A stretch of DNA of 54,699 nucleotides from a virus (taxonomy: Duplodnaviria > Heunggongvirae > Uroviricota > Caudoviricetes). Shown here one piece after another: positions 23,657 through 28,274 of this stretch (the first letter of the stretch is position 1; each line of letters begins with the position of its first letter). The notes under the pieces were generated by a model. That model saw only the letters and a program-made list of their open reading frames with translations, did not search any database and was not told the DNA's origin. The DNA is taken from positions 1 through 54,699 of the IMG/VR virus record IMGVR_UViG_2974665086_000001, one strand, 5' to 3'. The translations under genes were made by a program, and so were the position numbers.

Positions 23657-24025
23657 ATGATTTCAACAAAACAGGATATAGTTGTCCCTAAAACAGGGAC
23701 TTATATCAGCGGGAGACTGTATTCAGCAATAAAATACAAAGCTAACCTTCGCAACATCAACTTTGAAGTTAGTTTAAAGTTTCTTGACAAGCTATTTGAG
23801 TCTCAAGGCGGGCTGTGTTACTATTCAGGTCTCTCGATTGATGGGAAGACCCGCAATCAAGTCACAGCCAGCCTGGACCGAACAAATTCTGATCTAGGTT
23901 ATATAGAATCTAATGTACGTTGGGTACACAAAGACGTTAACTTTATGAAGCATACTGCCTCCGAAGCTCACTTTTTTGATTTGATTGAATTGATACACGA
24001 AAGAAGGAACGATATTGACACCTAG
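23657..24025 (+). CDS. His-Me finger (HNH/EndoVII-like) endonuclease
   Basis: QGGLCYYSG, ASLDRTNSDLGYIESNVRWVHKDVNFMK. Confidence 0.65.
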   Translation: MISTKQDIVVPKTGTYISGRLYSAIKYKANLRNINFEVSLKFLDKLFESQGGLCYYSGLSIDGKTRNQVTASLDRTNSDLGYIESNVRWVHKDVNFMKHTASEAHFFDLIELIHERRNDIDT

Positions 24026-25019
24026 AATTACAACACCAAAAGACACATACACTTTTGATTACCCACAGGCAATCCAGTATGCAGAGATTCAGCGTAGCGT
24101 TTTCTGGTCCCCAGAAGAGATTAACGTCGAAAAAGACATTCAGGACTTGCGTGTTAATATGTCAGAGGCAGAAAAGCACGGTGTAACAACTGTACTTAAG
24201 TTATTTACTCTGTATGAATTGCTAGTAGGCAACGAGTATTGGAATGGACGAGTTCGCGAGAGCTTCCCACGACCTGACATTGAAATGATGGCTAATGCGT
24301 TCGGTTTCTTTGAAATCAACGTTCACGCTCCATTTTACAACAAGCTCAACGAAGCTCTGATGCTTAACACAGATGAGTTTTATGAAAGTTACACCAAGGA
24401 CGCGACACTAAAGGCACGTATTGACTTTGTAAACGATGCAGCAGACGACGATGATCTGCTATTCGCTCTCGCAGCATTCAGTATGCTAGAGGGTGCAGTA
24501 CTATACAGTAGCTTTGCTTTCTTGAAGTCTTTTCAGTCTCAGGGACGTAACTTATTGAATAATGTTTGTAGAGGCATCAACTTTAGCGTACGTGATGAGA
24601 ATCTGCACGCCGAAGCCGGTGCTTGGCTATACCAAACTTTGCTTAAGGAAACTGGGCTAGACTCCAATAAAAAGCGTGAGCTAGAAGCTAGAATTCTTAC
24701 AGCAGCAGCACATGTTTACGAACATGAGCAGAGAATCATTGAAATGATTTTCGAAAAGGGAGATATCCCAGGGCTATCACAAGATCAGCTCGAAGTATTT
24801 GTAAAGTCTCGAATCAACCTTTGCCTAAGCAATCTAGGTTTTGAAGAAGAAGACCTATACAAGATTGATGAGAACCCAATCGCAGATTGGTTCTACAAGG
24901 GCATTAACAGTACACAATTCGGTGATTTCTTTAACGGCACACAGTCTGAATACAACAGAACGTGGGACGAAGGAGCTTTCACCTTTAATGATGAGGAAGA
25001 TGGAGGTTTTACTTTTTAA
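24015..25019 (+). CDS. nrdB: Class Ia ribonucleotide reductase beta subunit
   Basis: FWSPEE, EINVHAPFY, EGAVLYSSF, RDENLH metal and radical motifs. Confidence 0.95.
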   Translation: MTPRITTPKDTYTFDYPQAIQYAEIQRSVFWSPEEINVEKDIQDLRVNMSEAEKHGVTTVLKLFTLYELLVGNEYWNGRVRESFPRPDIEMMANAFGFFEINVHAPFYNKLNEALMLNTDEFYESYTKDATLKARIDFVNDAADDDDLLFALAAFSMLEGAVLYSSFAFLKSFQSQGRNLLNNVCRGINFSVRDENLHAEAGAWLYQTLLKETGLDSNKKRELEARILTAAAHVYEHEQRIIEMIFEKGDIPGLSQDQLEVFVKSRINLCLSNLGFEEEDLYKIDENPIADWFYKGINSTQFGDFFNGTQSEYNRTWDEGAFTFNDEEDGGFTF

Positions 25020-26696
25020 ATGACAAATGTATATGAGCAGTATTCTGCTGAACGAAAAGCTGGACAACAAGCGGGAGAAGTACCGGATTGGTACATCACG
25101 CCGGGTTACCAGATGTTCAATCTCAAGTATATTGAGCCTGGACAGACACTTAAGCAACGCTACGAGAGAATCGCAGAGTATGCGGGTGGTATTGCAACTA
25201 GATTGTATGGAGAAGGTCAATGGGAAGCCAGATTCTTTAATGCAATCTGGAAGGGTTGGCTAAGTCCCAGTACGCCCGTACTGGCAAATCTAGGAACAGA
25301 TCGCGGTATGGCTGTAAGCTGTACTGGAAACTATGTCGATGACTCGATCTATGGCTTCTATGATTCGCGCCTAGAGTCTGCCATTCTGACAAAGAACGGT
25401 TTCGGAACTAGTAGCTATCTCGGTGATATTAGAGCCAGAGGCAGCAAGTTCAGTGATAACGGCAAGGCAAACGGTGTAGTACCAGTTGCCAAGGGATTCG
25501 TTCAGGATATGGACGACACCAGTCAGGGCAGCACACGTCGTGGTGCTTGGGCCGGGTATCTAGAAGCCGATCACGATGACTTCGATGAGTTAATCGACTA
25601 TATGTATAACCACCCAGACGGATTGAACTTAGGATGGATTATCAGTGATGCGTTTATTCAAAGGCTCAAAGATAATGACAAAGAGACTATCCGCAGGTAC
25701 CAGAAGATTCTTAAGGCACGTGCTGTAACTGGCAAGGGCTACATGTTCTTCGTGGACAAAGTAAATAAGCAGAATCCTTCGAGCTACGCAGAGAATAATC
25801 TTAGCGTTAAGGCATCGAACCTATGCTGTGAAATTGCTTTGCACTCGGATGCAGACCATAGCTTTAGCTGTGTACTCAGTTCACTTAACCTTGCTAAGTA
25901 TGATGAGTGGAAGGATACAGACCTTGTATTTACTTCCACAGTGTTTCTCGATTGCATCGCTCAGGACTTGATCGACAAGGGATCAAAGATCAAGGGTATG
26001 GAAAAGGTTGTACGTTTCACTGAAAAGTCACGTGCACTTGGTCTAGGTGTAATGGGATATCATACTTTGTTACAGAAGCGCTCTTTGCCTTTCGATTCAC
26101 CGGAAGCATTCGCTCTGAACAAGGAAGTCTTCGGCCAGATTTCTCATCTAGCTGGAAGTGCTTCTCGATACATGGCTCAAGAGGCAGGATCGCCAGAATG
26201 GGCACCGAAGGGCCGACGCAATACGCATTTAATGGCTATTGCTCCAACAATGTCCACCGCTTTGCTAGTCGGTGGTGTCAGTCAGGGAATCGAGCCAATT
26301 GTTGCTAACGTGTTTAATCAATCGTCAGCAGCAGGAGAAATGGCACGTATTAACCCAACCCTGATTGAAATAATGAAAGAACGTGGCGTTTACGATCAGT
26401 CAACAATTGACTTTATAATTGACGACAATGGATCAGTCAGAAATGTTGACTGGCTAAACGATCACGAGAAGCAGGTATTCAAAACTGCATATGAAATCAA
26501 TCAAGAGGCTGTAGTACAGCAAGCTTCTGATCGACAACAGCATATCGACCAGGGACAATCGCTAAATCTTTTCTTTGACGCTAACGAGTCCCCGGCCTAC
26601 ATCAGTAAGATTCACAAACAAGCAATGCTTGACCCGTATATCAAGGGACTTTACTACATGAGAAGTAAAGCTGGTATTCAGGCAAGCAAGGGCTAA
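25020..26696 (+). CDS. nrdA: Class Ia ribonucleotide reductase alpha subunit (no ATP cone, no C-terminal Cys pair)
   Basis: SPSTPVLAN, VSC, SNLCCEI, SCVLSSLNL, IAPT, QGQSLN, GLYYMRS; ends QASKG. Confidence 0.95.
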   Translation: MTNVYEQYSAERKAGQQAGEVPDWYITPGYQMFNLKYIEPGQTLKQRYERIAEYAGGIATRLYGEGQWEARFFNAIWKGWLSPSTPVLANLGTDRGMAVSCTGNYVDDSIYGFYDSRLESAILTKNGFGTSSYLGDIRARGSKFSDNGKANGVVPVAKGFVQDMDDTSQGSTRRGAWAGYLEADHDDFDELIDYMYNHPDGLNLGWIISDAFIQRLKDNDKETIRRYQKILKARAVTGKGYMFFVDKVNKQNPSSYAENNLSVKASNLCCEIALHSDADHSFSCVLSSLNLAKYDEWKDTDLVFTSTVFLDCIAQDLIDKGSKIKGMEKVVRFTEKSRALGLGVMGYHTLLQKRSLPFDSPEAFALNKEVFGQISHLAGSASRYMAQEAGSPEWAPKGRRNTHLMAIAPTMSTALLVGGVSQGIEPIVANVFNQSSAAGEMARINPTLIEIMKERGVYDQSTIDFIIDDNGSVRNVDWLNDHEKQVFKTAYEINQEAVVQQASDRQQHIDQGQSLNLFFDANESPAYISKIHKQAMLDPYIKGLYYMRSKAGIQASKG

Positions 26697-26718
26697 TAAA
26701 CTATAAAGGAGAAACTAT

Positions 26719-26805
26719 ATGGATGACTTGGATTGGTCAAACTGGGACAGCTCCCAGACTTGCCTTATCGAAAACGGTGACAATTGCACCGCTTGCGAAG
26801 GCTAA
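26719..26805 (+). CDS. 28-aa peptide resembling a free RNR alpha C-terminal redox tail
   Basis: AAAGGAG RBS 7 nt upstream; MDDLDWSNWDSSQTCLIENGDNCTACEG. Confidence 0.7.
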   Translation: MDDLDWSNWDSSQTCLIENGDNCTACEG

Positions 26806-26817
26806 ATATTAAATAAG

Positions 26818-26851
26818 AAATACCCCCAGAGAATAAAATCTGGGGGTATTT
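26818..26851 (+). terminator. Intrinsic terminator (possibly bidirectional) after the RNR operon
   Basis: AAATACCCCCAGA-8 nt-TCTGGGGGTATTT followed by TT. Confidence 0.8.
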
Positions 26852-26882
26852 TTGTTATAATTAGGAGGTCAGATAGAAAGGA

Positions 26883-28274
26883 TTGATTAGAATAGCTGAT
26901 TATACAAGGTATCCAGAAGCCTTTAAGAAGTTTGGAATTAACTTTACAGAAGAACCGGGTTGGCGTGAGCGCGGCCACGGAGATATAGTTAAAGTACAGT
27001 TTATCGTTATCCACCACACAGCAGGTGGAAATGATGCGGGTGACATTAGAATTGTTACATACGGCAGATCAGATTTGCCAGGACCACTATCTCAATTAGT
27101 TTTGAAGAGAAATGGTGATCCACATATCGTTGCTCAGGGTGTTGCATGGCACGCTGGTTATGGTCCTGCAATGTGGGGAGCGCCAGCAGGCAACGGTAAC
27201 TACTACTCGATTGGTATTGAGGGTGTATCTAACGGTTATAACGACTGGACAGAAGCACAGAGAGCTAATTATCCTAAGGTAGTAGCAGCTTTGCTTAAGG
27301 ATATGGGCTTGCCGTCAGATAGATGGATTTTCCACAGAGATTACAACAAGCGCGATGGTAAGATCGATCCCGCTGGTTTTGACGCGGGTTGGTTCGGGCG
27401 TGAGGTTAATCGTTGGTACAACGACGGTGGACAGCCTGTTGAATCTGCCATTCAAGCAAAGCGTAGAGAAAACGCATGGCTAGGTAATAAGACTATCCCA
27501 GAAGACGAGCGTAAGACTCTCGATGGTGTAGGACGTTATGCTAGTTACGATAATGGATATGTGTACTGGCATCCAAGTATCGGTGCTCGCACAATTAAGA
27601 ATGGTCCAATCTGGGATTATTATGCAGCACAAAAGTGGGAACAAGGTTTCTTGGGTTACCCAATTAACGATACTCACGATCTAGGAGACGGCAGAAGTGC
27701 TCAGGCTTTCCAGAACGGTTCTGTTTACTCAGGCCCAAAGGGAACTTACCTGGTTATGGGTCAGATCGGTGCAGAATGGGCTAGACTTAACTGGGAAAAG
27801 GGTCCACTAGGAATGCCCATCTCAGAAGAGCTAAAGAGTCCAGCCGGTATTATCCAGAAGTACGAAAATGGTACTATCTTTTACACAGTGGCGGGAGGAG
27901 CTAGAGCTACATATGGTCTAATCGAACAAACACGTTCACGACTAGATCAGGAATTCAGCTTTGGATATCCAGAAAACAGCGAGTCACCTTGCTTCAATAA
28001 CACTGGACGATTCAACCACTTCGTGAAGGCTAGTATTTATTGGAAGCGTGGCACTGAAACTGCCTTTGCAGTAGCCGATCCAGCTAGAGAAATCTGGGGT
28101 AAGATGGGATGGGAACAGGGAAGACTTGGTTATCCTATCTCAACAACTAGTCCGAAGTTCGGTTCTCTCGAGATTCGTAGAACAGACTTCGAGGGCGGTT
28201 CAATTGAATACAATACAAAGACAGGCGAAATCACACTTATTATCAGTGGAAAGGTTGTAGACCTACCGAAGTAA
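26883..28274 (+). CDS. Endolysin: N-acetylmuramoyl-L-alanine amidase plus LGFP repeats
   Basis: IHHTAG, HAG, IGIEG, HRDY..KIDP; repeated WE.G.LG.P motifs; probable start ATA at 26892. Confidence 0.9.
   Translation: MIRIADYTRYPEAFKKFGINFTEEPGWRERGHGDIVKVQFIVIHHTAGGNDAGDIRIVTYGRSDLPGPLSQLVLKRNGDPHIVAQGVAWHAGYGPAMWGAPAGNGNYYSIGIEGVSNGYNDWTEAQRANYPKVVAALLKDMGLPSDRWIFHRDYNKRDGKIDPAGFDAGWFGREVNRWYNDGGQPVESAIQAKRRENAWLGNKTIPEDERKTLDGVGRYASYDNGYVYWHPSIGARTIKNGPIWDYYAAQKWEQGFLGYPINDTHDLGDGRSAQAFQNGSVYSGPKGTYLVMGQIGAEWARLNWEKGPLGMPISEELKSPAGIIQKYENGTIFYTVAGGARATYGLIEQTRSRLDQEFSFGYPENSESPCFNNTGRFNHFVKASIYWKRGTETAFAVADPAREIWGKMGWEQGRLGYPISTTSPKFGSLEIRRTDFEGGSIEYNTKTGEITLIISGKVVDLPK

Follow-up and report, generated by a model that had tools for sequence, protein, structure and literature searches.

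The redox-active tail of a class Id-like ribonucleotide reductase appears to be encoded as a separate micropeptide in actinobacterial phages and bacteria

Gene organization of the locus and class of the reductase

The stretch of DNA analysed here (the window) comprises 54,699 nucleotides of the viral record IMGVR_UViG_2974665086_000001 (Caudoviricetes) and represents the opening 54.7 kb of the genome of a Rhodococcus-type phage, which has 139,262 bp and carries direct terminal repeats. It contains a ribonucleotide reductase (RNR) operon in which nrdB and nrdA are followed by a 28-codon open reading frame (ORF), whose product is a candidate for the redox-active C-terminal tail that NrdA lacks (Table 1). 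NrdA ends in YYMRSKAGIQASKG, with no cysteine pair there and no cysteine anywhere after its YY motif, and its gene is closed by two tandem stop codons (TAA TAA), the second at positions 26697-26699. After a spacer of 22 nt, within which a Shine-Dalgarno (SD) sequence is located, the small ORF opens in the +1 frame relative to nrdA. The peptide that it encodes has two recognizable halves, an acidic Trp motif (D-x-L-x-W-x-x-W) and a tail of the form C-x-IENG-x-x-C-x-x-C-E-G, and terminates in CLIENGDNCTACEG. Every detail of the locus given in an initial reading made by a model from the letters of the DNA, without database searches (the sequence-only reading), proved correct, the terminator behind the ORF included. 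The phage genome has a single peptide gene and a single gene for an RNR alpha subunit.

Table 1. Features of the nrdB-nrdA-peptide operon, in positions of the window
Feature	Position	Strand	Basis
nrdB, radical-generating small subunit, 334 aa, TTG start	24015..25019	+	PF00268, E 2.4e-49
nrdA, catalytic large subunit, 558 aa	25020..26696; through second stop 26699	+	PF02867, PF00317, TIGR02510
Shine-Dalgarno sequence AAAGGAG	26706..26712	+	sequence; 6 nt 5' of peptide ATG
Putative detached redox-tail peptide, 28 aa, MDDLDWSNWDSSQTCLIENGDNCTACEG	26719..26805 (ATG 26719, stop 26803-26805)	+	family alignment, profile matches, pN/pS
Intrinsic terminator closing the nrdB-nrdA-peptide operon	26816..26853	+	15-pair stem, then T run

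NrdA consists of the domains PF00317 and PF02867 only, without an ATP cone, and reached 605.8 bits against the NCBIfam model TIGR02510 ('NrdE-prime'), a narrow margin over the cut-off of 602.25. Among solved structures, the class Id alpha subunits 6dqw and 6dqx come closest to it (6dqw, E 7e-114), and those closest to NrdB, which bears neither a glutaredoxin nor an ATP-cone add-on, are the class Id beta subunits 6cwo, 5olk, 6sf4 and 8dq3, from a class whose beta subunit has a Mn2(IV,III) cofactor. The NrdAi clade was reported to have a median length of 564 aa and a beta-alpha gene order (Burnim et al.), and the window NrdA, at about 560 aa, shares this gene order. Because of the TIGR02510 score, the structural matches of both subunits, the length and the gene order, the enzyme is class Id-like (NrdAi) and not class Ia, the label under which the sequence-only reading had placed it. 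The redox cysteine pair at the C-terminus of the alpha chain, otherwise a mark of NrdAi, is missing from the window NrdA, and its loss delimits a sub-clade. Residues C101, N267, C269, E271, C284 and Y545/Y546 are all kept, in columns that are invariant or nearly so in the family alignment. From its alignment, NrdA looks catalytically intact except for the missing tail.

Conservation, translation signals and genomic setting of the peptide gene

Homologues of NrdA were collected by a search of 5.8 billion proteins, and 55 among the best 120 were devoid of cysteine after the YY motif. A small ORF ending in C-x-x-C-E-G was located directly 3' of nrdA in all 35 tail-less loci with flanking DNA, which include about 30 chromosomes (Nocardioides, Lentzea, Phycicoccus, Segeticoccus and Marmoricola), and none of the 58 tailed loci needs such an ORF. 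The ORF was also present behind the deepest-branching tail-less NrdAs (6/6), although gene callers had missed it in three of these six metagenomic loci. Altogether it follows nrdA in 41 of 41 tail-less loci from the window, phages, metagenomic phage contigs and bacterial chromosomes; the arrangement first noticed in a single genome is therefore conserved as a separate ORF in its relatives. Rhodococcus phage NiceHouse, with 74% DNA identity, shows the same arrangement in frame 0 with a 3-nt gap, and in the phages Grayson, Peregrin and Weasels2 the peptide ORF lies in frame +2 and overlaps nrdA by 1 nt. The nearest tailed homologues, of about 55% identity, belong to T5-like Vibrio phages and Pseudomonas phage PA11 and end in ...QASKGECVACEG or ...QASKGECEACSG; many metagenomic sequences are likewise tailed and end in ...QASKGECVACEG. 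The two arrangements are complementary, in that the window NrdA stops at ...QASKG and the peptide supplies ...NCTACEG, where tailed relatives carry ...ECVACEG.

Trees were constructed from the NrdA core only, with all residues after the YY motif removed (quick-search trees, midpoint-rooted). The tail-less NrdAs formed one side of a single branch (55 versus 64 sequences, Shimodaira-Hasegawa-like approximate likelihood ratio test (SH-aLRT) 100), and in a tree with more distant tailed homologues 63 tail-less and 75 tailed sequences were again divided by a single branch (support 99). A tail is present in every one of the most divergent homologues, so a single derived loss is the simplest account of the tail-less state. 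The bacterial copies were nested among sequences from long, phage-like contigs, and the detached tail appears to be a trait inherited within a clade of actinobacterial phages and bacteria rather than a phage-specific one. It is rare overall: in an even, phylum-wide sample of 400 genomes the peptide profile matched only the genome at the centre of the sample and one fused tail, and among the genomes searched the trait is confined to Nocardioides- and Lentzea-type carriers.

Five alignment columns, at NrdA residues 102, 144, 147, 281 and 417, separate the tail-less NrdAs from their tailed sister clade, and three of them adjoin elements of the active site: one directly follows C101 (+1), one lies at -3 of C284, and residue 417 belongs to the phosphate loop PTMSTALLVGG. 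This last residue is Cys in the sister clade and Val in the tail-less enzymes; the idea that this cysteine had 'moved' to the peptide was rejected, since more distant tailed homologues have Met, Leu or Val at this position. Pairing of the acidic peptide with the basic stub that many tail-less NrdAs have behind ...ASK was also discarded, the stub of the phages being largely the translated SD of the peptide gene (AAG AAG GAG).

In the alignment of the peptide family, the N-terminal half carries the acidic aromatic motif D-x-L-x-W-[DES]-x-[WF], and the C-terminal half, with its three cysteines, reads C-x-I-E-N-G-x-[DE]-C-x-x-C-E-G. The acidic Trp motif was found in detached peptides only. Over a 27-codon core of 27 distinct sequences, the ratio of nonsynonymous to synonymous polymorphism (pN/pS) was 0.26-0.28, and the invariant Cys, Gly and Glu residues are written with synonymous codons; the peptide is evidently under purifying selection. 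A profile made from 17 bacterial peptides matched one of the 2,109 six-frame segments of the window, namely this ORF (E 4.5e-13; next E 3.5). The ORF had already been called or annotated as a gene in NiceHouse (gp50), Grayson (gp65), Peregrin (gp64), Nocardioides and Lentzea, whereas in Weasels2 nothing is annotated at the match position. The named homologues of the peptide that were looked up are all listed as 'hypothetical protein' at NCBI and JGI.

A chance ORF is ruled out by this purifying selection, and it is scarcely credible that the peptide is an unrelated, ribosomally synthesised natural-product precursor. It is short and Cys-rich with an acidic, leader-like N-terminus, and a homologue from Lentzea pudingi bears the UniRef name 'FxLD family lantipeptide', which is a single automatic label. 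However, the peptide has no match in Pfam, NCBIfam (E<=1) or PHROGs, no modifying enzymes adjoin it (the adjacent genes are nrdA and lysin A, or a varied set in bacteria), and it is always linked to a tail-less nrdA. No peptide locus was found beside lanthipeptide synthetases among the 35 + 6 + 1 loci, all of which lie immediately behind nrdA, the 23 small proteins described below falling outside this sample.

Relative to nrdA, the peptide ORF lies in frame 0, +1 and +2 in 7, 11 and 17 loci, respectively, and the spacer ranges from a 4-nt overlap to a 92-nt gap. Most of the ORFs possess their own ATG and an upstream SD-like GGAG, GAGG or AAGG. The occurrence of all three frames, the varied spacers and the individual SD sequences accord with independent or coupled initiation and exclude a common recoding mechanism. 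If such a mechanism did operate (programmed frameshifting, stop read-through or ribosomal bypass), a full-length tailed NrdA would be made and the enzyme would not really be split. This explanation finds some encouragement in the NiceHouse-type phages, whose peptide ORF is in frame with nrdA and separated from it by one TAA and one sense codon, but the window itself has two tandem TAA codons and a +1 frame. No single mechanism fits three frames, spacers of -4 to +92 nt, further stops and separate SD sequences and start codons, and we regard recoding as highly improbable. An assembly error at the junction, against which the sequence-only reading had cautioned, is not the cause of the split, because the junction, with both of its stops intact, is spanned by contigs of four independent metagenome studies. 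One natural variant has gained 1 nt in the spacer and lost 3 nt inside the ORF, as expected of two separate reading frames.

The three-Cys half of the peptide was also encountered in fused form, on the large class I alpha subunits of two actinobacteria, which end in ...ACSIENGPDCEACQ and ...ACSLENPEACEACQ with the pattern C-x-[IL]-E-N-x3-C-x2-C-Q (L127:1-1551 of G393, and L132, the second alpha of Lentzea). Since the motif is fused to actinobacterial class I alphas, this half is a genuine RNR tail type, and the fused-tail pattern C-x-I/L-x-N-x3-C-x2-C, which the sequence-only reading had cited, was thereby located in real proteins. Its occurrence there suggests a tail type that is shared or borrowed across class I clades. 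When 1.84 billion representative proteins were searched with the peptide profile, 23 small proteins of 29-100 aa with the motif at their extreme C-terminus were retrieved, and no NrdAi with the long motif as a fused tail was found. Four long Thr/Ser/Ala/Gly-rich Ig-repeat proteins also matched the profile and were set aside as chance matches.

Downstream of the terminator, lysin A (Amidase_2 and four LGFP repeats) begins with a TTG at 26883, and the order of peptide, hairpin and lysin A recurs in several phage relatives. A TATAAT and an AGGAGG are present between the terminator and lysin A (26854-26883). At the other end of the operon, a 122-aa endonuclease (23657-24025, + strand; phrog_3322, E 5e-33, with weaker matches to HNH and endonuclease VII families) is encoded between a glycosyltransferase gene and nrdB, overlapping the nrdB start, and NiceHouse has only a 125-nt gap at this position. 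This difference suggests that a free-standing endonuclease of the homing type was inserted next to the RNR genes. A metagenomic phage relative contains a 218-aa ORF with no Pfam family on record between nrdB and nrdA (L120:148-804), and in L121 an HNH endonuclease gene is situated 3' of the peptide ORF; insertions seem to be drawn to the RNR operon. One sub-clade of Nocardioides encodes a Cys-rich protein of about 119 aa (CRGCCCG...) whose gene begins on or beside the stop codon of the peptide gene (L095:3331-3687, and the matching position in L092, L093, L097-L099, L102, L103, L107 and L108). It shows a sub-threshold likeness to thioredoxin-like [2Fe-2S] ferredoxin (E 0.007) and is absent from the remaining carriers.

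Proposed role of the peptide in trans

The central claim of the sequence-only reading, that the redox tail is encoded separately rather than fused, has strong comparative support in the loci, the trees and the tails of the relatives. We consider it likely that the product of the 28-codon ORF is the redox-active C-terminus which this class Id-like RNR lacks, made as a separate polypeptide that acts in trans. The peptide would be translated on its own from the nrdB-nrdA-peptide mRNA and would be, in effect, a third, micro-sized RNR subunit. Turnover would leave the active-site pair C101/C284 of NrdA as a disulfide, and the C-terminal C-x-x-C of the peptide would enter the active site and reduce this disulfide by thiol-disulfide exchange; for fused tails, a role in active-site re-reduction has been described (PMC11903788). 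The oxidised peptide would in turn be re-reduced by a thioredoxin-type protein, supplied either by the phage, which encodes one with the motif CNPC, or by the host. Non-covalent docking through the acidic Trp motif (D-x-L-x-W-D-x-W) most likely replaces the lost covalent link, and this motif is the obvious anchor candidate because only detached peptides have it. It may dock on the reductant or on NrdA, close to the C-terminus of NrdA or the rim of the active site.

The CNPC protein is encoded outside the window, at 104417-104722 of the phage genome (L118:1411-1716). It is a thioredoxin-fold protein of about 100 aa (PF00085, 35.6 bits; phrog_22) and might serve the detached tail as a dedicated reductant; the phage genome yielded no glutaredoxin.

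Alternatively, the peptide might bind the RNR or its reductant without shuttling electrons, serving as a regulator or inhibitor, as a thioredoxin-recruiting adaptor or as a small factor that binds metal through its three cysteines, while NrdA receives its electrons directly from a small thiol or a reductant protein. Sml1, which competes with the tail of yeast R1, provides a model for a regulator at the site of the tail. A role of this kind would accommodate the three invariant cysteines, as compared with two in the fused tails of the sister clade. The Trp motif could then be a handle for the reductant, as thioredoxin docks on aromatic residues of the B. subtilis RNR (PMC11903788), and small-molecule reductants have been suggested for RNRs without tail cysteines (Burnim et al.). 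On the other hand, the last seven residues of the peptide agree with the sister clade's fused tails, NrdA lacks its tail exactly where the peptide is present, and the homologue at L122 keeps the C-x-x-C only, which argues that this pair is the essential part. We therefore judge a role without electron transfer to be unlikely.

Four points weigh against a redox tail acting in trans as we propose it. The L122 homologue (L122:2499-2597, after P0031) has the acidic Trp motif and the terminal C-x-x-C and thus two cysteines only, the first cysteine, otherwise invariant, being missing. AlphaFold2 predicted, at modest confidence, two short helices for a 40-aa Nocardioides homologue modelled alone, with a predicted local distance difference test (pLDDT) score of 72 and a predicted template modelling (pTM) score of 0.35. 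The long motif might have come from the tail of another RNR clade rather than from a split in place. Finally, the split enzyme is not the sole reductase of its bacterial carriers and need not be essential there: the Nocardioides-type carriers also encode a B12-dependent NrdJ with a zinc-finger tail, and a large class I enzyme is present besides in Lentzea.

Class I alpha subunits are said to be recharged by a Cys pair on their own flexible C-terminal tail (PMC9669993, PMC11903788). A detached tail would be a departure from this rule in a whole clade of class Id-like enzymes, from cultivable phages as well as bacteria, which would carry their tail on a peptide of about 30 residues. Whether class I RNRs can have a genuine third subunit, a separate micropeptide bearing the re-reduction cysteines and a docking motif of its own, seems to us evenly balanced. 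If they can, recharging could be dosed independently of the catalytic subunit, with one tail serving several active sites, and the extra cysteine could couple the peptide to actinobacterial reductants. The system would also offer a natural means of studying the poorly understood re-reduction half-cycle in trans, since the tail could be titrated, mutated, labelled or synthesised with the catalytic subunit untouched, and the docking motif may reveal the binding site of the tail. For annotation, tail-less NrdAs could be misread as non-functional or as users of small-molecule reductants, and the peptide ORF itself is liable to be missed by gene callers, as in the three metagenomic loci, or to receive the misleading name 'lantipeptide'.

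Comparison with known reductases and split systems

Covalent class I alpha tails are exemplified by C754/C759 of E. coli NrdA and C695/C698 of B. subtilis NrdE. Like them, the peptide has a C-x-x-C at its extreme C-terminus; its final seven residues differ very little from the tails of the sister NrdAi enzymes, and its three-Cys form matches the tails fused to large class I alphas of actinobacteria. Unlike them, it is unattached, with its own start codon and ribosome binding site and an N-terminal docking-like motif. The class Id RNRs of Flavobacterium johnsoniae, Actinobacillus ureae and Leeuwenhoekiella blandensis resemble the window enzyme in their minimal alpha subunit of about 560 aa, the lack of an ATP cone and the beta-alpha gene order. 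The difference lies in the tail, which the tailed NrdAi-type relatives examined bear on alpha and the window clade does not.

A fragmented class I nrdA has been reported from Aeromonas phage Aeh1, in which two polypeptides must reassemble and the catalytic core is split by a mobile endonuclease gene (Crona et al. 2011, PMC3045599). In the window locus, by contrast, the core is intact, the tail alone is detached and no mobile gene lies at the junction.

The closest published precedent found is the split class II reductase NrdJa/NrdJb of Pseudomonas aeruginosa, in which the active site belongs to NrdJa and the C-terminal cysteines to NrdJb, a protein that mediates thiol-disulfide exchange and is indispensable in vivo (PMC4520616). 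NrdJb binds near the C-terminus and the active-site rim of NrdJa, and the split was called unique among free-living organisms (Crona et al. 2015, PMC4520616); IscU-like and zinc-finger domains were predicted for NrdJb (Burnim et al.). Both systems share a tail-less catalytic chain, redox cysteines on the polypeptide of an adjacent gene and inheritance of the split within a clade. NrdJa/NrdJb, however, is class II, adenosylcobalamin-dependent and gamma-proteobacterial, and NrdJb is a folded protein, whereas the enzyme described here is class I (NrdB, YY dyad) and its partner is a peptide of 26-56 aa that lacks any recognised domain and bears an acidic Trp motif, which is new. The peptide has no sequence relationship to NrdJb and is not a member of its family. 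The sequence-only reading had known of no description of such an arrangement. For class I this still holds, as our full-text literature search, with most subscription journals outside its coverage, found no description of a detached tail, but the principle itself has been published for class II (PMC4520616). What appears to be new here is that the NrdJb principle extends to class I, in the shape of a micropeptide that has a docking-like motif of its own and is common to phages and bacteria.

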